A stretch of DNA of 46,017 nucleotides from Terrimicrobiaceae bacterium. GTDB taxonomy: Bacteria; Verrucomicrobiota; Verrucomicrobiia; Chthoniobacterales; Terrimicrobiaceae. The position numbers and the translations under genes were made by a program. Positions 2,040-46,017 of this stretch are shown piece by piece. The notes below the pieces were generated by a model that had not been told where the DNA came from, did not search any database, and worked only from the letters and a program-made list of their open reading frames with translations. The stretch spans positions 1-46,017 of the forward strand of contig JBIIPZ010000027.1 in the NCBI GenBank assembly GCA_044342325.1, written 5' to 3'. The stretch's first letter is position 1. Each line of letters starts with the position of its first letter.

Positions 2040-3458
2040 ATGAATACAGCTGCATGGCTGAAGTGTATCGTTTCTTCAATCGGAGCGGTGGGTCTTATTT
2101 ATGTCCTGATCGTGCCTGCGCCTGCCGGGTTGCCGCTCGCTGGTTGGCACACCTTGGGCGTTGCGGTTCTCATGGCTTCGCTGTGGGTCTCGGAGGCGAT
2201 TCCTTTCGCCGTTACGGCTATGTTGCCGCTGGTGTTTTTTCCCATGCTCGGCATCTGCGGAATGGCAGGTGCGGCCGCGCCTTTTGCCAATCCCGTGATC
2301 TTTTTATTTTTAGGCGGTATGCTCATCGCGCAAGGGATGCAGAGTTGCCATCTCCATACCAGATTGGCGTTCTTCCTCCTGCGGCTCGCCGGCACGCGCC
2401 AATCGTCGATCCTAGGCGCCTTCCTTCTGGCATCCGCCCTGCTTTCCATGTGGATCAGTAATACGGCGGTCGCCCTCATCATGCTTCCGATTGCTGTATC
2501 GGCCATCAGCCTCTTTCGCGAGGGGAGTGAAAAAAACTTCGCAGCCGCGTTGGTTTTATCTGTCGCCTATGGAAGCAGTATCGGTGGCATGGCGACGCTT
2601 GTGGGAACGCCTTCGAATGCCATTTTTGCAGGGTTTATGGAGGAATCCTACGGCATCGCAATTAGCTTTCCGCTGTGGATGGCAATAACCCTGCCGATCT
2701 CTTTCATCTTGCTGATCTCGGCGTGGATTATCCTAACTCGCGGGGTTTTTCGTCTCGGCGGTCGGATGGCTGTGGGGGAGAACTTTCTGGAGCGAGAAAA
2801 ACTTCCGCCCCTCGGCTTTGGCGGCATCGGAGTTATCGTAGTATTTGCCATTTCAGCCGTCCTTTGGATTGTGCGGGGATTCCTTGAAACGCGTCTGCCG
2901 TGGCTTTCCGATGCGGGCATAGCCATGGCAGGCGGATTAGCGCTCTTTTTTCTACCAAGTGGTTCCCCAGGTGGAGGGCCTGTTCTCAAGGCGGAAACCT
3001 TGAAAAAAATTCCCATCGATGTGCTTCTTCTGATCGGTGGTGGGCTGAGTCTCGCGGCGGCGATGCAATCCAGCGGTCTCGCTACATGGATCGGTGGCCT
3101 TGGTGCCCATGTGGGTCATTTCCCACCCTCTGTGTTGCTTGCGGTGACATCCATCGTGACCATTGGTCTGGCTGAGTTTACCAGCAACACCGCAACCACA
3201 GCGGCATTTCTACCCGTCGCCAGCGCTCTGGCTGTGGGACTCGGTTACTCCCCCGTCGCCCTCTCCATGGCGTTGACCTTGGCGAGTAGTTGCGGATTTA
3301 TGATGCCCGTTTCAACTCCGCCCAATGCGATTGTTTACGGTTCAGGCTATGTGACACTGCCTCAGATGCTCCGCGCGGGCTTCCTGCTTAACCTCGGTGC
3401 CTGGTTCCTCATATCTGTCTGGTTTGGATGGTTTGTTCCACGGCTATTTGCGTTTTGA
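2040..3458 (+). CDS. DASS/SLC13-family Na+:dicarboxylate/sulfate symporter
   Basis: Many TM helices; two SNT motifs (WISNT, FTSNT), GTPSN and STPPNAI motifs; ATG at 2040 chosen as start. Confidence 0.9.
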   Translation: MNTAAWLKCIVSSIGAVGLIYVLIVPAPAGLPLAGWHTLGVAVLMASLWVSEAIPFAVTAMLPLVFFPMLGICGMAGAAAPFANPVIFLFLGGMLIAQGMQSCHLHTRLAFFLLRLAGTRQSSILGAFLLASALLSMWISNTAVALIMLPIAVSAISLFREGSEKNFAAALVLSVAYGSSIGGMATLVGTPSNAIFAGFMEESYGIAISFPLWMAITLPISFILLISAWIILTRGVFRLGGRMAVGENFLEREKLPPLGFGGIGVIVVFAISAVLWIVRGFLETRLPWLSDAGIAMAGGLALFFLPSGSPGGGPVLKAETLKKIPIDVLLLIGGGLSLAAAMQSSGLATWIGGLGAHVGHFPPSVLLAVTSIVTIGLAEFTSNTATTAAFLPVASALAVGLGYSPVALSMALTLASSCGFMMPVSTPPNAIVYGSGYVTLPQMLRAGFLLNLGAWFLISVWFGWFVPRLFAF

Positions 3459-3544: not shown

Positions 3545-6500
3545 ATGAAGAACGGACGGAGTAGGAAATTCTATCAATCGACGAGATTTTGGCTTGTCGC
3601 TGCTGCAGTCGTGACCCTCATGCTGGTGGGGCAGGGGCCGTTTTTGTCTTTTGTCGTGCGGCAATTTGTCGAGCGGGGCATGGCTCGGCAGGGGTTGGTT
3701 TTTCGTGCGGATTCGCTGCGTGCGGCTGCGTTTGCTCCCGTTGTGATCGAGGGCGTCTCGATTCGCCCGACCGAAAAGGGGCGCGGAGGGCCGATAGTTC
3801 ACATGGAACGCCTTGAGATCGTGTGGAGCGGGCCAGGCCGTTTCCTCTCGGGTTGGAGACACTGGGTTCACTCGGTGTCTGCTGAGGGAATGAATGTCGT
3901 GGTGGATTTGCGGCGCCCTGAGAAGTCCGTGCCGCGCGATCAGGCGGGATTTGATGACGCCGCCAGTGTGGTCGGGCTTTTCGCGCCCGGCGGGGCTTGG
4001 CCTTCCCTCATCGAAATCCGGAATGGATCGGCGGAGGTGCTGGGCGAAAATTTCCGCCATGTTCTCGATGGTTTGGATCTGTCTCTGAACTCCGAAGCGC
4101 ATGGTCGCATTCGTCTGGAGACTCTCACGGTGCAGGCTGGGAAGTTTAACAAGGTGTTCGGTCCATTCACCGCGCCGACAACATGGGAGCAGGGAAATGC
4201 GAGTCTGGCCGGCCTGGATTTGGTGCCTGGAATCACCCTCAGCGATGTCTCATTGCGTCTGGGCTCGTTGTCCGGTCCATCCCTGTCTTTCAGTGCCCGC
4301 GTTTTTGGCGGCGCGTTGAGAGGTGATGTCAATCTGAGCAAGGGGCCTCGCGGCAAGGTCTGGGATATCGCCGCCTTCGGTTCGAATATCGCTGTCGATG
4401 ATCTTCCTGCCTTACTGGATTTGAGTGGAAAGGCGAGGGGGACGCTGGCAGAAGGGCGCTTCACATTCCGGGGCGATGCCGAGCGACCGGTGGATGCTGA
4501 GTCCTCGCTGCGGGTTTTGGCAAAGGATTTTCGCTGGAATGACCGCGGTTGGGACTCTCTGGAAATCGGAGCCAGCCTCATTCATCGCCGCCTGCTCATT
4601 TCGAATTTCGACCTGCGTCAAAAGGAGAACAAGGTAACGGTGAACGGGGAAATCTCGCTTGCCGAGGGCTGGAGCAAGATTTCGGAGTCGCCATTCCTTG
4701 CGAACATCCGAGCGAATATCAAGGAACTCGATTCGTTGGCAGGTTTGCTCGGTGGCCCGCTGGGCCAAACATCTGGTCAACTCACTGCAGAGGGCTCTGT
4801 GAGTGGACGGCCTGGCTCGCTGGATGGATTCCTGGGCATTCGCGCCACCGGCGTCGTCTACCAATCTGTGCCAGTGGAGCGCATGAACCTCGAACTTCTT
4901 TTTAGGAAAAAACAGATCGATCTCGTCCGCTGCGAAATGGTCTCGGGCAAGGATGCACTCAATGCCAAAGGCACGGTGGACCTCGCCGCGCCCCACGCCT
5001 ACTCCGCGGAGTTGAATGCGACCCTCGCGGAAGTGGCCACCTATCTGCGTCCGTTTTACGACAAGGGCAGCGGCGCTGTATCCGGCGGCGCGATGGGAAT
5101 CCGCTGGAAAGGCAAAGGCGTTGCCAACGCGCATTCGGGTGAGTTCGATGTCGATTTATCGCGATTTGCCTCGTCGCTAACTCCGGCGGGATTGACCGGG
5201 CATTTCGTTGGTTTTTATTCGCCGGAGAGCCTGTATTTTTCGGACCTTGATCTGGAAAACGGCAATACGCATCTGCGAACCAGGGCGACTGTTTCATCCA
5301 CGGGCCTGACACTTGAAGGCTTGGAGTTGACCGGTGCCTCCAAACCTTTGCTGTCGGGTTCCGCCTTCTTGCCGGTGGATGCGCTCGCAATTCTGCGCGG
5401 TGCGGATTGGAAAGCTGCGGTGCTTCAGAGCGGGGACATGTATGTGCGGGCCACTACTCCGGCGGAAATCGACTTGCGCGATCTGCTGCGGCTCGCAGGG
5501 CAGGATCGGCCTCTCAGCGGCCTCGTGAAAATGCAGTTGGAGGCTTCCGGGCCGCCCTCACGGCCGAATTTCAATGCCCTCGTCAAGGGGCGCGAGGTCG
5601 CATTTGGCGGTGGTAATGTTCCGCCATCCACCGTCGAGATTGATCTGAAAACCCAGGCGGGCGATGCGACCCTCAATGGCAAAGTCGAGTCCGCAGGCAT
5701 GGCTCCGGCTGTTTTCAAAGCCACTTTCCCGCTCGGCCTCTCGCAGGACAAGGAGGGAACACTGCGTTGGATCGACTCCCAAGCTCCCTTTCAAGCCGAT
5801 GTCGAAATGCCCCGCTTGGATCTCGCGCTGGCCCGGCCGATCCTTCCTTTTCTGCACAAACTTCGCGGCGAGATTTCGGGGCACGCGAAGATCATTAATA
5901 CGAGTGATTCGTTGAAAGTTACGGGCGAGGCCGAGGTGCGCGGGACAAGTTTTGGTTTCGAGGGATTGGCTGCGGGTGTGGAGGCTCTGCACGGCAAGAT
6001 TGCCGTGGTTGATGGGGTTCTCTTGTTTCAAAATATCGAGGGAGAGGTTGGGCGGGGGCGCTTTGCTATGGAGGGAAGTTGCGAGTTTGCTGAGCCATGG
6101 AAGCCCAAGTGGGACCTGCGTTGGCGGGCGGATCGTGTTCCTCTGGCGAGCCATGCCGCTTTGGCGCTTCTGGCCACGGGCGAACTCCAAGCTGTGGGTA
6201 GTCAGGAAGGTGGTGCGTTGTCTGGAAGGATCGGATTCGAAGGCTCCCTGATTCATGGCGCATTTTCGCTCCAAGCATTGCTTTCACAAAAGCTGGCATC
6301 GGTTCCGAATTTCCCATCGGCAGCCCGGATTCTCTCAAAGCTCACGCCTTCGGCGGATTGGCTTCTGAATGTAAAAATCGACGGCGGTTCTGGCGTCGAA
6401 GTGCGAGGAGGCAAGTTCAGTGCCTTCCTTGCGCCTGATTTGCGCTTGCTTGGAACCGCAGGCCAACCGCTGCCTGTCGGGCATGTTCTGTTGTCGGGTA

Positions 6501-6949: not shown

Positions 6950-7966
6950 TCAGCGCGTGCCGCTGATCAGTTCTACAAAACGGTGCCCTGAGTCGGTCAG
7001 GCGGGGCGAGCCTTTGGATCCGGCTATGATGCCCCGGGTGGCGGCATGGTAGGCGTAGGGCGTCTCCTTCACCCACTCGAGTCGAGGTTCCAAGGGTGGT
7101 TGGTTGGCTGCAACGGCTTTTACCGGGACGCCGTATTGGGTGAAGGAAACTGTCCAACCGCGCGGTGAGGCGGGCTCGCCATCGGGAACGATCCATGGGT
7201 AGTTGCGGATGATGGAAAGATTCGGCGAGTCGGGGATGGTGATTTGATAGGCTACATCTTGGTTGCGGATGTGCTCCTTGAGGCTGAATGCGGGATTTTT
7301 TGCTGATTCCAGGAGGATGGCTGCGGGCTCCATGCCGACCAGATTGAATCCATGGTAGATGCCGTGTTTGTTGGGGGAGCCTGAAAAGTAGCGGTGATAC
7401 CAGGTTTCGAAGTCCTCGTTCAGCAGGACAGCGATTTCCAAGTGGAGGTGGGCTCGCTCGCGGTTGATGCCAGCTCCTGTGAAGCCCATTTTTCCGATCA
7501 CTTCGCCTTGGGCGACTTTCTGGCCAGCTTGGGCGGAGATGGTGCTGAGGTGGGCATAGAGTGTGTAAATCGGGCTGCCTTCGATGAGGTGGCGGATCAC
7601 AACATAGCGGCCGTAGTTCGAGGCTCCTGCTTCATGGCTCACATGGACGACGGTTCCTGCGGCGCAGGATTTCACGTCGTCGAGAGGGTTGCCCGCCGCG
7701 TCGCGGTGCACGGGGGCGATGTCGATGCCCTCATGCAGTGTGCCATAGACGATTTCCGCCCCCACGCGCTTAGGACCGCGCACATAGCCATAGGAACCGC
7801 CTTCCCAGGGCTTCGTTTCGACGCCCTCGAAGTTCCGATCCACATACATGTAGAAGTCCTGTGGTCGGCCTTCTAGGAGGGCCTTGTTCTCCGTAGGCCA
7901 ATCGAAAAGCGCGGCGCAGAGTGGAGTGGTGGCAGCAAATAGAGTGAGGATGAATCGCGAGATCAT
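6950..7966 (-). CDS. M23-family metallopeptidase, secreted
   Basis: Signal peptide; HEGIDI, YAHL and HLHLEI Zn motifs. Confidence 0.9.
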   Translation of the reverse strand: MISRFILTLFAATTPLCAALFDWPTENKALLEGRPQDFYMYVDRNFEGVETKPWEGGSYGYVRGPKRVGAEIVYGTLHEGIDIAPVHRDAAGNPLDDVKSCAAGTVVHVSHEAGASNYGRYVVIRHLIEGSPIYTLYAHLSTISAQAGQKVAQGEVIGKMGFTGAGINRERAHLHLEIAVLLNEDFETWYHRYFSGSPNKHGIYHGFNLVGMEPAAILLESAKNPAFSLKEHIRNQDVAYQITIPDSPNLSIIRNYPWIVPDGEPASPRGWTVSFTQYGVPVKAVAANQPPLEPRLEWVKETPYAYHAATRGIIAGSKGSPRLTDSGHRFVELISGTR

Positions 7967-41204: not shown

Positions 41205-42164
41205 ATGCGAATCCTCCTCACCACCACCTCTCTTCAAGACACCCCCGGCACTCACCACGATTTGCTGGCGAGCACCGGATTTGAAATCATCCGCGAGCGC
41301 GGACCGCTTAGCGAGGCTCGCATGCTCGAGTTGGCGGGGGATTTCGATGCCTTCCTCTGCGGGGACGATGCCATTACTCGCAAGGTTCTCGAGAAGTCCC
41401 TTCCTCGCCTCAAAGTCCTCGCCAAATATGGCATCGGCCTCGATAAAATCGATGTCGCCGCCGCCACCGACCTCCGCATCCCCGTCACTTTTTGTCCCGG
41501 TGTGAACCACACGACCGTGGCTGAGCATTCCTTCGCACTGCTCCTCGCTCTCTGCCGCAATCTTGTGGAGGAGGCGAATTATGTTCGCTCCGGCAACTGG
41601 AAGCGCATCACGGGCCATGAACTCTATGGAAAAACCATGGGTATCGTCGGGCTCGGCCGTATCGGTTGCGAGGTGGCCATCCGGGCTAAGGCGTTCGGTA
41701 TGCAGGTCGTCGGCTTCGGCAACCACTGGGATGTGGATTTCGCTGCCAAACACGGTGTCGAGCGAGTGGCCTCGCTGGATGAACTTTGCTCGCGGTCGGA
41801 TGTCATCTCACTCCACACGAAGCTCACCGATCAAACCCGCCACATGCTTGACGCGCGCAGACTGGGTTTGACCAAGCCTGGCCTGCTTCTTGTCAATTGC
41901 GCCCGTGGCGAACTGGTGGAAACCAACGCGCTGCTGGAGGCGCTGCGCTCGGGTTCCCTGGGGGGCTATGCGGCGGATGTCATGGATGAGGAACCGCCGC
42001 CAGCAGACCATCCGCTCCTCACCGCACCTCGAACTGTCATTACGCCTCATATCGGCTCCCGCACGCATGAGAATGTCGTTCGCCAAGCCACGATGGCCGT
42101 TCAGAACATGATCAATGTCCTCGCCGGTCGCCCCGCGCTCGCTCAAGCCAACAAAGTTTCCTGA
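41205..42164 (+). CDS. D-isomer-specific 2-hydroxyacid dehydrogenase (SerA-like, no ACT domain)
   Basis: GIGLDKID, VAEH, GLGRIG Rossmann motif, NCARG, DVMDEEP, TPHIG. Confidence 0.9.
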   Translation: MRILLTTTSLQDTPGTHHDLLASTGFEIIRERGPLSEARMLELAGDFDAFLCGDDAITRKVLEKSLPRLKVLAKYGIGLDKIDVAAATDLRIPVTFCPGVNHTTVAEHSFALLLALCRNLVEEANYVRSGNWKRITGHELYGKTMGIVGLGRIGCEVAIRAKAFGMQVVGFGNHWDVDFAAKHGVERVASLDELCSRSDVISLHTKLTDQTRHMLDARRLGLTKPGLLLVNCARGELVETNALLEALRSGSLGGYAADVMDEEPPPADHPLLTAPRTVITPHIGSRTHENVVRQATMAVQNMINVLAGRPALAQANKVS

Positions 42165-43267
42165 TGAACAATCCCAACGAGTATTTTGTCGTTCCAGCCG
42201 AGCTCCATGATGACCTAGTGCGCCGTGCTTACATGAAACGCGGCTACACGAACGAGGAAGCTACCGATGCCTCGCGCTTCTGCCACAGCGCCTCGCGCCA
42301 TGGCATTCGCACTCACAATGGTCTGAAGGCTCTTCACCTGGATGACCTCTTCGGCAGCAAGGTTGGGGGATGGGTCCCCGGCGCGGAGATCGAGGTTCTA
42401 CCATCCCGCTTCGCCGCTGCGGAGATTTGGGATGGACACAAAAAACTTGGCCAGGCTGTGGCCTACAAAGCCATGGAGCGCTGCATGCAGTTGGCCGATC
42501 AATACGGCGTCGGCATGGTGAGCGTGGACAACGCCACCCACTACTTGTGGGGTGGGGGATATGTGATCGACGCCGCCCAGAAGGGCTACATCGCCTACAC
42601 AAATTGCACCTCCGCGACTTCGGAAGTCGTTCCCTTTGGAGGAAAGACCCCGACCATGGGCACGAATCCTCACTCTTGGGGATTCCCCACGCAGTCAGCG
42701 GTAGGCTTCCCCATCGTCATCGATTGGGCCACATCCACCGTGGCCATGGGCCGCGTCCAGCAATTCGCCCGCGAGGGAAAGGAACTCGCTCCCGGTTGGG
42801 CGGTGGATGCCGAAGGTAAACCCACCACCGATCCCAAGAAAGCGACGGCACTTTTGCCTTTTGGTGCCCACAAAGGCTACGGACTCGGGCTCGTGGACGA
42901 ACTCTATGCCGCATTCATCGGCGGCTCCCTGCCTTCGATTCGCGGAACAACTCGTGGGCCTGCCTCCGAGAAACGCGGCTCCACTTTTTTCTTCCAGTGC
43001 ATCCACCCCGAAGCCATGCGGGGCCATGACTACGCACTCGGGCGCACGCAGGAGGAAAATCTCAAAATCTGCCTCGCCGATATCCTCGGTCAAGGCAACG
43101 AAGCCTGCATCCTGCCGGGTCAAATCGAGGCTCAATCAGCCAAACTCACCGATACCCACGGTGGACTTCTCTTCACCAAAGCCGAGATCGAAGGCTTCAC
43201 CCACATCACGGATGAGCTTGGCGAACCCGCTTGGAACATTCAGAATTTTCCGTCAATTATTCTTTAA
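42164..43267 (+). CDS. Ldh_2-family oxidoreductase (malate/L-lactate/diketogulonate-type)
   Basis: GIRTH, H..GGGY, MGTNP, DWATS, PTTDP, GAHKGYGL; TGATG coupling with the upstream gene. Confidence 0.88.
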   Translation: MNNPNEYFVVPAELHDDLVRRAYMKRGYTNEEATDASRFCHSASRHGIRTHNGLKALHLDDLFGSKVGGWVPGAEIEVLPSRFAAAEIWDGHKKLGQAVAYKAMERCMQLADQYGVGMVSVDNATHYLWGGGYVIDAAQKGYIAYTNCTSATSEVVPFGGKTPTMGTNPHSWGFPTQSAVGFPIVIDWATSTVAMGRVQQFAREGKELAPGWAVDAEGKPTTDPKKATALLPFGAHKGYGLGLVDELYAAFIGGSLPSIRGTTRGPASEKRGSTFFFQCIHPEAMRGHDYALGRTQEENLKICLADILGQGNEACILPGQIEAQSAKLTDTHGGLLFTKAEIEGFTHITDELGEPAWNIQNFPSIIL

Positions 43268-43279
43268 TCCCTACCCATT

Positions 43280-44377
43280 ATGTCACTCACACTCCGCGAT
43301 CCATCCACCTGCCTCTACGATCAAATCTCCCTCGGCGAAGTCATGCTGCGCCTCGACCCCGGTGAAGGCCGCATCCGCACGGCGCGTCAGTTCACCGCAT
43401 GGGAAGGTGGCGGCGAATACAACACCTCGCGCGGTCTGCGCAAATGCTTCGGCCTACGCACAGCCGTCTGCACGGCTCTTGTGGACAATGAAATCGGACA
43501 CCTCATCGAGGATTTCATCATGCAGGGTGGGGTGGACACCGAGTTCATCAAATGGCGCGAGGACGACGGGATCGGCCGCTCTGTTAGAAATGGCCTGAAC
43601 TTCACCGAGCGAGGATTCGGCATCCGTGGAGCCGTTGGCAATCCCGACCGTGGCAATAGCGCCGCCTCGCAGCTCAAACCCGGAGACTACGACTGGGATC
43701 ACATCTTCGGCCAACTCGGCGCCCGTTGGTTCCACACCGGTGGCATTTTTGCCGCTTTGTCCGAATCCGCCGCACAGATCACCATCGAAGCGGTCACCGC
43801 TGCCAAGAAGCACGGCACGATTGTGAGCTACGACTTGAATTACCGACCCTCGCTCTGGAAATCCATCGGCGGTCAGGCCAAGGCCCGCGAAGTGAACCGC
43901 GAGATCGCCAAGTATGTCGATGTCATGATCGGCAACGAAGAGGACTTCACGGCATCCCTCGGCTTCGAAGTTGAGGGAGTGGATCACAACCTCAGCACGA
44001 TTGAGACCGAGGCCTTCAAGCGCATGATCGAAACCGCCGTGAAGGAATATCCGAACTTCAAAGTCGCCGCCACGACCCTCCGCCGGGTCATCACCGCCTC
44101 GCGCAACGACTGGAGCGCCATTTGCTGGCACGATGGAGCCTTCTACGAGAGCCGCAAGTATCCCGAGCTCGACATCCTCGACCGCGTCGGCGGCGGTGAC
44201 AGCTTCGCCAGCGGCCTCTCCTTCGGATTCCTTTCTCAAAACGATCCACAAGCGGCCGTCGATTACGGCGCCGCCCATGGTGCCTTGGCTTCCACAACGC
44301 CCGGCGACACCTCCATGGCCACACGCCAGGAAGTCGAGAAACTCATGAAGGGCGGCGGCGCCCGCGTGGTGCGCTAA
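43280..44377 (+). CDS. kdgK: PfkB sugar kinase, 2-keto-3-deoxygluconate kinase-like
   Basis: LGEVMLRL, GGGEYN, YDLNYRPSLW, NEED, DRVGGGDSF. Confidence 0.8.
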   Translation: MSLTLRDPSTCLYDQISLGEVMLRLDPGEGRIRTARQFTAWEGGGEYNTSRGLRKCFGLRTAVCTALVDNEIGHLIEDFIMQGGVDTEFIKWREDDGIGRSVRNGLNFTERGFGIRGAVGNPDRGNSAASQLKPGDYDWDHIFGQLGARWFHTGGIFAALSESAAQITIEAVTAAKKHGTIVSYDLNYRPSLWKSIGGQAKAREVNREIAKYVDVMIGNEEDFTASLGFEVEGVDHNLSTIETEAFKRMIETAVKEYPNFKVAATTLRRVITASRNDWSAICWHDGAFYESRKYPELDILDRVGGGDSFASGLSFGFLSQNDPQAAVDYGAAHGALASTTPGDTSMATRQEVEKLMKGGGARVVR

Positions 44378-44392
44378 GCGCTCATCGCCCTG

Positions 44393-44476
44393 CGGCGTGA
44401 CAACGCTCTGTCACGGCGTGACAACGCTCTGTCATGGCGAGACAACGCTCCGTCACGGCGCAAAGAAGCTCTATTA
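44393..44476. repeat. 21-bp tandem repeat, about 4 units, degenerating to the right
   Basis: cggcgtgacaacgctctgtca twice, then tggcgagacaacgctccgtca and cggcgcaaagaagctctatta. Confidence 0.85.
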
Positions 44477-44562
44477 TCCGAAAATTTGGGAAACGGCATT
44501 TCGTTCAAAAAAGTGCTCATACCAATGGCTGTGGTTTTAAATTTTCGCGAGCCATCTTGACT

Positions 44563-44623
44563 TGTAGCGGCGTCTCTATGAGCGCCGAATCGTTGACCAT
44601 CGGCGGTCGCAAACCGCCTTCTA
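44563..44623. repeat. GTAG-type REP pair in inverted orientation (REPIN-like)
   Basis: tgtagcggcgtctctatgagcgccg (44563-44587) plus degenerate inverted partner cggcggtcgcaaaccgccttcta (44601-44623); first copy matches each rpn-flanking REP at 23/25. Confidence 0.7.
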
Positions 44624-44681
44624 TCAGCATGCCCCCAAAAGTATTCAGATTTTTGTATCAAAAAGGGTTGAGCTATTTCCG

Positions 44682-44900
44682 TTAACCTTCTGGCAGCGAC
44701 TCCAGAAACAACCTTACCGCAACTTCCGGAATTTCGCTTGACCCCGCACCCGCGCTCCGACAGAACTTCAGAAACCGCTCCAAGTGCACGCTCCACCAAT
44801 ACAGCGTCTTCTCCGCAACCTTCAACCCTCGCCCTCCCACCATCCGCACCACCCACGCCTTCGGATGCTGGGCAACAATTCTCTCTTTCCCCTCGCTCAT
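44682..44900 (-). pseudogene. Truncated N-terminus of a putative integron integrase
   Basis: 72-aa fragment (AEKTLYWWSVHLERFLKFC..VRLFLESL) resembles an integrase N-terminal SAM-like domain; divergent from attI and the cassettes, where intI should lie; no catalytic domain follows. Confidence 0.5.
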
Positions 44901-44959
44901 ACCTCTCATACTGCAAAGCCCGCCCGAATTGTCCACTTTTTTATCGCCTTTCTGGTTAA

Positions 44960-44992
44960 TTTGGAAATTTGTGTGACCAAACAACGTTCGCA
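44960..44992 (+). other. attI-like integron recombination site
   Basis: ccaaacaacGTTCGCA (G at 44986) resembles attI1 AAAACAAAGTT; no attC stem upstream; complementary to the R'' box of cassette 1. Confidence 0.65.
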
Positions 44993-44998
44993 AAGAAT

Positions 44999-45334
44999 AT
45001 GAGCCTACATCCCTACTTTCCACCAAGTCTGCTATTTTACTTTATGGTCTGTGTGGCGATAGGCTTCATTTCAGTTGTTCTACTTTCGAGAAAGTTCAAT
45101 CCCTTCTGGATATATATTTGTGCCGCTACTTCCTTTTTGCCGACAATATTGGCAGGAATATGGCTTTTCTGGGCATTCACGACGTTTGGCAACAGTGGTT
45201 ATGTTGGCGCTCGTGATCCCCAAGAAATATTCGCAGCGCTATACAGGTCATTTTTACAAGGTGCCTTTTCTACATTTGTCCTGCTTATTCTCGATGGTTT
45301 TATCGTCTGGAGAGCACAACAGACAAATCGCTAA
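44999..45334 (+). CDS. Integron cassette 1: 111-aa protein with three TM helices
   Basis: ATG 13 nt after the GTT crossover, AT-rich, three hydrophobic helices, followed by attC. Confidence 0.8.
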   Translation: MSLHPYFPPSLLFYFMVCVAIGFISVVLLSRKFNPFWIYICAATSFLPTILAGIWLFWAFTTFGNSGYVGARDPQEIFAALYRSFLQGAFSTFVLLILDGFIVWRAQQTNR

Positions 45335-45354
45335 GTGATTTCTTCAAAACAAAA

Positions 45355-45468
45355 TGCGAACAGGGCCGTGCACCGAATCACCATGCCTTCGGCACTTTTG
45401 GCATTTCGCCTGCGGAGCAGGCTCGGATGCCAAAAGCAAGTGGTGATCGGTGACGGCGGACGTTCGCA
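45355..45468 (+). mobile_element. attC site 1 (114 bp)
   Basis: R'' TGCGAAC and R' GTTCGCA; gccgt(g)caccga(a)tcacca pairs with tggtgatcggtgacggc leaving two extrahelical bases; inner stems cttttggcat/atgccaaaag and gcctgc/gcaggc. Confidence 0.88.
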
Positions 45469-45474
45469 GAAAAT

Positions 45475-45900
45475 ATGCGCTCTCTACTGACCATTCTTCT
45501 TTTTGTGGTGTCTTGTCACGCAAGCGAAGTGAACGATCCAATCAATGAGTTGCGTGCAAATGACGGTATTTGGAAGATCGCTGGGGCTGACTCATTCAGT
45601 GATGGAGGGTCATTCTGTCTGTCATTCCTCTCCCAAAGCGGTCGCGTTCTTCATCTCTTTATGCTGCCAGATAGCGCGCGTAAGAACGGGAAGTTGGTAT
45701 TTCAGCTGAAGCGGAATTACGACGACCCCGATGCCATTACGATTCAAGAAGGCGACGCCAATCAAGACGCCATGATCTGGCTTCTCAAGAATTACCAAGA
45801 GAGACCAGAAATTAGGATCGAGAAGGCATTTACTCAGCGGCTTTCCCACGCTTTGATCAACCGCAACGATCCATTTCCCACCTTGCCAAAAATCCAATAA
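45475..45900 (+). CDS. Integron cassette 2: 141-aa exported protein or lipoprotein of unknown function
   Basis: ATG 13 nt after GTT; signal peptide with possible lipobox VVSC; stop immediately followed by R''. Confidence 0.8.
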   Translation: MRSLLTILLFVVSCHASEVNDPINELRANDGIWKIAGADSFSDGGSFCLSFLSQSGRVLHLFMLPDSARKNGKLVFQLKRNYDDPDAITIQEGDANQDAMIWLLKNYQERPEIRIEKAFTQRLSHALINRNDPFPTLPKIQ

Positions 45901-45964
45901 TGCGAACGTTAAAGGGTGTAGCGGAGGCGAGGCACGAGCCCTCCGACTGCACCCATTGTTGAAC
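45901..45964 (+). mobile_element. attC site 2 (64 bp)
   Basis: R'' TGCGAAC; stem gggtgtagcggagg / cctccgactgcaccc; R' GTTGAAC. Confidence 0.78.
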
Positions 45965-46017
45965 AAGCCCGGTTTGTAAGGGGGAGGCGGGGCGTATGCG
46001 GTTTATGTTTGAAACGG

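Follow-up and report, generated by a model that had tools for sequence, protein, structure and literature searches.

The right-hand end of contig C46 from a Terrimicrobiaceae bacterium appears to hold the remnant of a chromosomal integron, one of whose gene cassettes has been interrupted by a mobile element, here called U. The stretch analyzed (the window) is the entire 46,017-nucleotide contig C46 of genome bin G000, which comprises 78 contigs and 2.93 Mb, is 86% complete and has a contamination value of 0.28%; because the window is the whole of C46, the remnant sits at a contig end. Below, G000 is the source bin, other G numbers are genomes of the same genus, C numbers are contigs, L numbers are loci or contigs, and X numbers are metagenome runs. 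The DNA search for relatives covered 41 genus genomes (40 besides the source). The stretch was found in lake and freshwater metagenomes from 14 studies, and close kin of the bin's integrase come from lake and freshwater bins named Spartobacteria, Terrimicrobiaceae or Chthoniobacter. The end of the window contains an integrase gene fragment, an integron attachment site (attI), and cassettes consisting of an open reading frame (ORF) and a cassette attachment site (attC), as follows, where the slash marks the point of crossover.

44682..44900, minus strand: truncated integron integrase gene (intI stump), 72 codons and TAA, corresponding to residues 1-73, within the N-terminal extension, of the 466-residue IntI encoded on contig C30
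44925..44992, plus strand: attI, conserved over about 70 nt up to its terminal core ...AACGTT, with the crossover G/TT at 44986-44988
44987..45462, plus strand: cassette 1, ORF 44999-45334 (111 amino acids, hydrophobic, no family) and attC; the start box TTCGCA matches R'' TGCGAAC
45355..45468, plus strand: attC of cassette 1, type 1, 114 nt; covariance model R1 gives it 129.2 bits on the plus and 19.9 bits on the minus strand
45463..45907, plus strand: cassette 2, cut within its attC, ORF 45475-45900 (141 amino acids) and R'' 45901-45907 only; homologues in L149 and L150
45908..46017, minus strand: end of invading element U, comprising a 50-nt hairpin (45908-45957), GTTGAAC (45958-45964) and a 53-nt non-coding end that runs to the contig end at 46017

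We read this region, with a probability of roughly 80%, as a chromosomal integron platform that has decayed, from a freshwater bin of the Terrimicrobiaceae ('Spartobacteria'), and in which the attC of cassette 2 has been split by U. An ancestral intI, convergent with the neighboring kdgK-like gene, would have lost everything after about codon 73, with attI and the array surviving. Two circularly permuted cassettes would then follow, each starting at G/TT and ending with an attC whose R'' box mirrors the start box, and U would have split the second attC right after AAC, the remainder of which should lie beyond U, off the contig. The integron remnant is of an ordinary kind, and the invading element is the more interesting part.

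The stump matches the IntI of C30 over query residues 1-73 in a tblastn-type comparison (E 2.3e-36, 85% identity), and window 44690-45006 aligns with C30:1787-1471 at 84.5% nucleotide identity over 317 nt, the match continuing through attI. The truncated intI divergent from attI that had been proposed from the letters of the window is thus borne out. Homology to intI ends at about 44690, and leftward of this are two repeats, one dispersed (about 145 nt) and one tandem (21-nt unit). The stump frame has no match in Pfam or NCBIfam, because the N-terminal extension itself has none. The C30 protein is a true integron integrase: it scores 415.9 bits against TIGR02249 (cut-off 265), contains SAM_4 and Phage_integrase domains (residues 154-453), and aligns across the whole core with VchIntIA (2A3V; E 2.4e-78), integron-specific insert included. 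The complete integron, with an intI carrying the additional domain, is therefore on C30 and not in the window, and the search for an intact intI that the sequence-only reading had recommended found one in the same bin. Two other genomes, G023 and G007, likewise hold one full intI together with one or more stumps.

The N-terminal extension of the C30 IntI is 150 residues long (L009, G000:C30 1577-2035) and belongs to no family; in a single comparison it was weakly similar to the SAM-like domain of the same protein (E 2e-6; 32% identity across 71 residues). It is seen in Terrimicrobiaceae-type bins and partly in some Opitutaceae bins, and it is this extension that makes up the window stump. In the complete integron on C30 the second attC (L009, about 590-650) is missing its 3' half, which fuses two cassettes: its R'' box, GGCTAAC, is followed about 45 nt later by the ATG of the next ORF.

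The attI block is common to the window, C30 (where it stands beside the intact intI), C68 and the orthologous locus of G015, and is degenerate on C11. Allowing up to 3 mismatches, the 17-mer core of attI was found at the four cassette loci and at 2 chance places in 2.9 Mb. G000 holds one complete integron and three attI loci lacking a complete intI, each followed by cassette-like units. Judged by sequence homology, the attI of the window adjoins intI, is divergent from it and ends in GTT at the start of the first cassette. The four attI-like blocks of G000 lie at C46 44925-44992, C30 about 1485-1560, C68 about 2938-3005 and C11 about 5040-5115; a 27-nt core is identical between C46 and C68 despite differing flanks, and no trace of intI was seen at the C68 or C11 attI loci. 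An attI core 92% identical to window 44932-44997 also occurs in L059 (G048:C81) at 7072-7137, in the middle of a long attC array and without a piece of intI.

An attC is an imperfect inverted repeat of 57-141 nt whose two ends read R''...AAC and GTT...R'; it has extrahelical bases on its R''-L'' arm and a spacer that stays unpaired. The site at 45355-45468 has these features. When it is folded as DNA, its R box pairs over 7 bp and is separated by an unpaired spacer from a stem that has two bases bulging out of the R''-L'' arm and ends in a branched tip. The fold energy is -41.0 kcal/mol (z -7.4), a value that none of 200 shuffles equalled; for the complementary strand it is -41.1 kcal/mol (z -8.2). 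It is predicted to be oriented for bottom-strand recombination. Similar units were found by BLAST on C30 (two), on C11 and in relatives.

A covariance model, R1, was made here from 13 aligned attCs of the genus, with the fold of the window attC imposed. The RNAalifold fold of the same 13 sites had just 6 pairs, because the central part of the attCs aligns badly, and was set aside. With the imposed fold, 80.6% of the cells are paired (29-44% with slid partners), 17 of the 39 pairs show compensatory changes, and none of 500 shuffles matched the observed paired share, compensatory-cell count or covariation score. Since the window attC is itself a training row, untrained controls matter: five of these scored 40-117 bits. 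Untrained matches include L025 (61.6 bits) and L024 (40.6 bits), which adjoin intact intI genes in two further families of this order, on the strand expected of a divergent array; the orthologous locus of G015 (117.4 bits); and five sites in two metagenome contigs (48.6-112.1 bits), with a weaker sixth at 35.4 bits. The covariance-model check proposed with the original prediction, carried out with our own model, thus recovered the attC of cassette 1. We note also a solitary type-1 attC at G000:C71:94521-94641 (minus strand; 73.9 bits with R1, untrained), behind ordinary-looking genes, in which R' has decayed to GAT in place of GTT; it is probably a fossil cassette.

These results bear on the alternative that there is no integron and that the motifs are chance occurrences, with the stems being terminators or repetitive extragenic palindromic (REP) elements behind small genes. 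The 7-mer GTTCGCA/TGCGAAC is just mildly enriched window-wide, with 16 occurrences on both strands against 9.0 +/- 3.5 after shuffling (5 of 100 shuffles reach 16); four of the 16 fall within the final 1,032 bases, in the order + - + -, and the other 12 are scattered across 45 kb. A scan of 44300-46017 with Rfam gave no attC-like family, and the one sub-threshold match, of a miRNA model to the tandem repeat, was dismissed as chance. Against this stand the homology to the intact intI-attI platform on C30, the covariation and strand-specific score of R1, the finding of this attC family next to intI genes of other bacterial families, and the occurrence of cassette 2 in other arrays (below). We regard the absence of an integron as exceedingly improbable.

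The motifs on which the cassettes were first recognized are all present: GTTCGCA lies at 44986-44992 and 45462-45468, the ATG codons at 44999 and 45475 each follow 13 nt after the G, TGCGAAC lies at 45355-45361 and 45901-45907, and both ORFs are open. The distance from the G of GTT to the start of a cassette ORF is 13-14 nt, in the window and in relatives alike. As had been noticed, each R'' box in the window is the reverse complement of the start box of its own cassette (2/2). Such mirroring is what recombination at G/TT of a circular cassette predicts, and it is exact in 14 of 19 boundaries; three more match at 5 or 6 of the 7 positions, and two fail, at weak model matches. The boundaries were taken from the window, C30, C68, G015, G048, G015:C81, G041:C78, L149 and L150, one of those on C30 being read by eye. 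The cassettes are AT-rich relative to the backbone, also as claimed, with a GC content of 0.43-0.50 across 44850-45899 and 0.57-0.65 across 42000-44399. The leader before the cassette ORFs is A-rich (such as AGAAATATG) and has no Shine-Dalgarno motif, at 44986-45001 and 45462-45477 of the window and in relatives.

Pfam and NCBIfam scans of the two ORFs gave nothing significant, the single match (Imm-NTF2-2, E 0.048) being below cut-off; the cassette 2 protein has a signal-peptide-like N-terminus and no family. Neither ORF was matched in the DNA search of the genus genomes, which returned only kdgK, repeats, stump, attI, attC and the terminal block, and the cassette 2 protein was found in 0 of the 40 other genomes. 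In metagenomes, full-length homologues form 11 protein clusters for cassette 2 (79-99% identity) and 3 for cassette 1 (63-97% identity), all without a family. On metagenome contigs L149 and L150, cassette 2 is a complete unit between other cassettes, with protein identities of 84% and 81%. Cassette 2 is thus a mobile gene cassette with different neighbors in different places; for cassette 1 there are protein homologues only. Both ORFs appear to be mobile and not fixed syntenic genes.

For the second site, 45901-45964, the sequence-only reading had proposed an attC that folds as the first one does, possibly followed by a third cassette. In that case the window would hold an ordinary three-cassette array, with a short forward attC ending cassette 2, a third ORF at 45996, and no prospect of movement without IntI. 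Several observations fit: TGCGAAC mirrors the start box of cassette 2, GTTGAAC agrees with the GTTRRRY consensus, the stem folds (-13.9 kcal/mol, z -3.0), GTT at 45958, GGGGAGG at 45981-45987 and ATG at 45996 are all present, and the frame from this ATG is open for at least about 50 codons in 9 of 13 copies. However, the bulge falls on the L' arm, where a forward array would not have it, and R1 run with filters off found no attC on 45901-45964, the best overlapping match having 3.9 bits (E 3.9). The ATG at 45996 is not supported as the start of a gene: differences among the copies of its frame mostly change residues, one copy having a stop and three being deleted. The stem and what follows it move as a single block behind 15 different left flanks, homologues of cassette 2 have a type-1 attC after TGCGAAC, and an intact IntI is present on C30. 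An ordinary array is accordingly very unlikely; of the claim that both attCs fold, the part on the first stands, and the second stem is not the attC of cassette 2.

The block concerned, 45903-46017, is a repeat, found again with 100% identity at the start of C36 and with 97% identity at C68:2458-2571. There are 14 further copies in the genus (89-100% identity) with 14 different left flanks, and six more of the hairpin alone. Counting the window, the left flank ends in AAC in 14 of 15 copies. The base before AAC varies among these 14 (GAAC 7, TAAC 4, CAAC 2, AAAC 1), and the flanks read as R'' boxes.

Three comparisons with empty sites define the breakpoint. First, an alignment of the window with L149 and L150 starts at GTTCGCA and holds through ...AATAATGCGAAC; at the base that follows, the window enters the U block, and L149 and L150 enter type-1 attCs (104.7 and 68.1 bits). 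Second, in a different cassette, X, the attC is normal in G048, and in G013 TGCGAAC is followed directly by U. Third, contigs from runs X2 and X5 match 45414-45907 with 0 differences and then continue for 49 and 311 letters unlike the window. Because all three place the break right after AAC, cassette 2 keeps TGCGAAC only. The second "attC" is therefore a chimera, of which only 45901-45907 belongs to cassette 2, with U inserted exactly after AAC; of the two proposed ORF-plus-attC cassettes, the first is complete and the second is split. The idea that the hairpin is an ordinary short attC common to many cassettes is ruled out by the G048/G013 and L149/L150 empty sites. In place of a third cassette, the sequence from 45958 is the end of an element that encodes an IS91 transposase and a tyrosine recombinase.

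A contig from run X1 spans 45399-46017 and continues for 315 letters, and no other contig of the bin overlaps the 46017 end apart from the repeat copies on C36 and C68. Metagenome joints 44990>45903, 44994>45896 and 44997>45381 have short sides and were set aside as probably coming from other attI loci. A joint 45352>45899 (run X2, side 21) could mean that U lies at the R'' of cassette 1 in another strain; it is too weak and was left unused. L059 (G048:C81) has at 3315-3385, as do G001 and G047, a hybrid site whose 5' half resembles the U hairpin and whose 3' half is a type-1 attC; in L059 it ends in GTTAGGC and is followed by a normal cassette ORF.

On C68 and on G024:C364, the U block continues into an IS91 (insertion sequence) transposase gene and a tyrosine-recombinase gene, both of which are on the strand opposite to the array in C68. 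The C68 transposase, which is split over two frames, scores 153.7 bits against NF033538 (cut-off 125) and contains PF04986 (Y2_Tnp) and PF14319 (Zn_Tnp_IS91). This copy thus has the Y2 HUH transposase and N-terminal zinc-binding domain of the IS91 family, in a gene that lies outside the window. The best score of the recombinase, 165.4 bits, is against the integron-integrase model TIGR02249 (it falls short of the cut-off, 265) and is made up of two stretches from which the integron-specific insert is missing. The copies of U are complete to varying degrees: measured against the one on C68, they extend over 2,566, 1,494, 1,468, 765, 397, about 270, 211, 195 and 121 nt, and contig ends truncate some of them.

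Read on the minus strand, the U hairpin has an R'' box GTTCAAC, a bulged T on the R''-L'' arm and a G/TT junction, and the sequence beyond it varies among copies. The opposite end of U starts TTGAAC, which gives mirrored cassette boxes (GTTGAAC/GTTCAAC) with both genes sense-oriented. In both copies whose far end lies on the contig (2/2), the sequence reads ...GTTCAA/C, a type-1 attC body, GTT and the next cassette ORF, with a body that differs between the two. These boxes, together with the attC-like hairpin and a recombinase nearest to integron integrases, lead us to favor site-specific entry. The folded hairpin of U would recombine with the GTT on the complementary strand of R'', giving an upside-down insertion; from the sequence features we hold this route with slightly better than even confidence.

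The same structure could also arise if U came in by IS91 rolling-circle (HUH) transposition, with its ori end abutting the AAC of R'' and the hairpin being an IS91 end. IS91 inserts next to GAAC or CAAG without target duplication, and in its relatives the ori end lies downstream of the transposase gene. U does encode an IS91-family transposase, the hairpin lies about 300 nt downstream of that gene in C68, and 7 of the 14 flanks are GAAC. The other 7 are TAAC, CAAC or AAAC, a target of 3-4 nt would not by itself explain why all 15 copies lie at cassette R'' boxes, mirrored boxes like those of a cassette stand at both ends of U, and the second gene is most like integron integrases. Transposition of this kind is possible, at clearly less than even odds. 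A plain IS91 insertion at GAAC, which was the first idea for 45908-46017, is weakened by the flank counts. Full-text searches of the literature made here returned no statement that elements with IS91 and integrase genes target attC R'' boxes.

Under site-specific entry, U would be a 2.8-kb unit with boxes GTTCAAC ... G/TTGAAC and its own 60-nt attC, set upside-down at AA/C of a resident R''. Its insertion severs the upstream cassette from its attC and would therefore immobilize it. Taking these points together, we propose tentatively, at a little below even odds, that U is a selfish integron cassette within a distributed integron system of one IntI and many docking sites.

The history of the platform can be followed with the flanking gene, which is found at 73-96% nucleotide identity across the genus and serves as a marker of the orthologous locus.

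43280..44377, plus strand: PfkB-family 2-dehydro-3-deoxygluconokinase-like kinase gene (kdgK-like), flanking chromosomal gene; Pfam PF00294, 67.1 bits

Its top NCBIfam matches are KDG-kinase models, every one under its cut-off. At this locus in G015, kdgK is followed by a stump with a broken frame, whose start is no more than a few bases off that of the window stump, by an attI with GTTGGGC, and then by a different two-gene cassette with a type-1 attC (R'' GCCCAAC). In G048, G001, G047 and G050 the repeat of about 145 nt is still there, and of the stump no more than 44690-44766 is left; an array follows, which in G048 has at least 8 R1 matches. G041 has a degenerate attI-like block and no stump, and farther species have other genes after kdgK that are mutually syntenic. 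The comparison next to kdgK that had been suggested thus shows a different first cassette in G015 and neither ORF fixed in relatives. The homology of G048, G001, G047 and G050 to the stump ends at the same base, 44766 (after ...CAGAAC); an abundant X5 contig also departs at 44766 with a different continuation, which may be a recurrent breakpoint at a complementary-strand GTT.

The truncation thus seems to be old and shared, yet the cassette at attI differs. A precise change of first cassette needs an integrase, because attI and attC have no mutual homology. Since sister species with the same truncation hold different cassettes, we infer that the stump platforms may be served in trans by the intact IntI of C30. 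The sequence-only reading called this integron frozen unless IntI is supplied in trans, a supply that C30 seems to offer, and frozen is a doubtful description for the same reasons: an intact IntI in the same bin and a different cassette in the G015 orthologue.

Several points weigh against this account as a whole. The stump frame is intact and has a dN/dS (nonsynonymous to synonymous rate ratio) against C30 of 0.146 (dS 0.50), which is not predicted of a long-dead pseudogene, the G015 orthologue being frame-broken. The attC call depends on our own model, with the window attC among its 13 training rows, and the window contains one complete attC and no more. No sigma-70-like promoter was found for the cassettes (0 sites, 1.4 expected), a result that says nothing either way for this phylum. 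The C68 copy of U may be dead, since its transposase is frameshifted. The truncations, if independent, could postdate the cassette differences at attI. Finally, C30 and C46 may not share a cell, because the genome is a 78-contig bin of 86% completeness. If these two contigs came from different organisms, the platform would have no IntI of its own cell and would be truly frozen; the stump is indeed nearer to the platforms of G004 and G014 (92-93% nucleotide identity) than to that of C30 (84.5%). Such a binning artefact is unlikely, given the low contamination value, the combination of a full intI and stumps in G023 and G007 as well, and the different cassettes carried by orthologous stumps.

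Degenerate chromosomal integrons and clusters of attC lacking integron integrase (CALINs; the term is used in PMC9229058, see also the IntegronFinder paper, PMC4889954) are known. The window resembles these in having attI and attC-ended cassettes without a working adjoining intI, a remnant of intI, and cassettes of lower GC content whose function is not known. It differs in showing one complete and one split attC before the contig end, in the intact attI that the stump keeps, one of four attI loci in a genome with a complete integron, and in that what is left of intI is the lineage-specific N-terminal extension and not the catalytic body. A CALIN has at least 2 attCs in a row with no intI nearby; in the window the second of these is present as R'' only. 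Sedentary chromosomal integrons of the Vibrio cholerae repeat (VCR) type have family-like attC repeats. Likewise, the attCs of this genus are long (113-127 nt), similar across cassettes and species, and carry two bulges on the R''-L'' arm, and ORFs start a fixed short distance past GTT; unlike the Vibrio type, the arrays are short and spread over several loci. The R boxes TGCGAAC/GTTCGCA differ from the consensus RYYYAAC/GTTRRRY outside AAC and GTT.

Among elements that invade attCs, IS1111-attC insertion sequences and group IIC-attC introns are mentioned in PMC9229058 (see also PMC3001079). As with these, U sits in the attC at one position and in one orientation; unlike them, it carries an IS91/Y2 HUH transposase and a tyrosine recombinase, inserts after the AAC of R'', and has cassette-like mirrored ends. 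IS91-family insertion sequences with an upstream integrase gene have the same two genes, and the U transposase passes the NCBIfam IS91 cut-off; U differs from the family in that the GAAC/CAAG target is present in just 7 of 14 flanks. The window adds empty-site alleles for an element with IS91 and recombinase genes that lands at one exact attC base, which would make it a third kind of attC-invading element. It also indicates that a true integron remnant can be detected from R-box symmetry alone, yet that the stem after an R'' box need not be the attC of that cassette. Truncated platforms may not be dead, which bears on how CALINs arise and turn over. If IntI acts in trans, the integron here would be one enzyme with many docking sites, with several intI-less attI platforms exchanging cassettes.

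Two repeats separate kdgK from the stump.

44393..44460, no strand assigned: 21-nt tandem repeat, 3.2 copies, outside the integron and directly after the kdgK stop
44516..44664, no strand assigned: REP-like dispersed repeat, about 145 nt long, in the interval from kdgK to the intI stump, with copies of 78-82% identity on C40, C38, C59, C2 and C42

Shorter pieces of the dispersed repeat occur on C9, C57, C13, C78 and C19, which brings the contigs of the bin that carry it to at least 10, and many genomes of the genus have it too. G015 has no copy at the orthologous locus; the repeat entered the interval between kdgK and the stump once this lineage and that of G015 had separated. The tandem repeat is also found on C41 and C53, and at the same locus its copy number differs among species and among runs.

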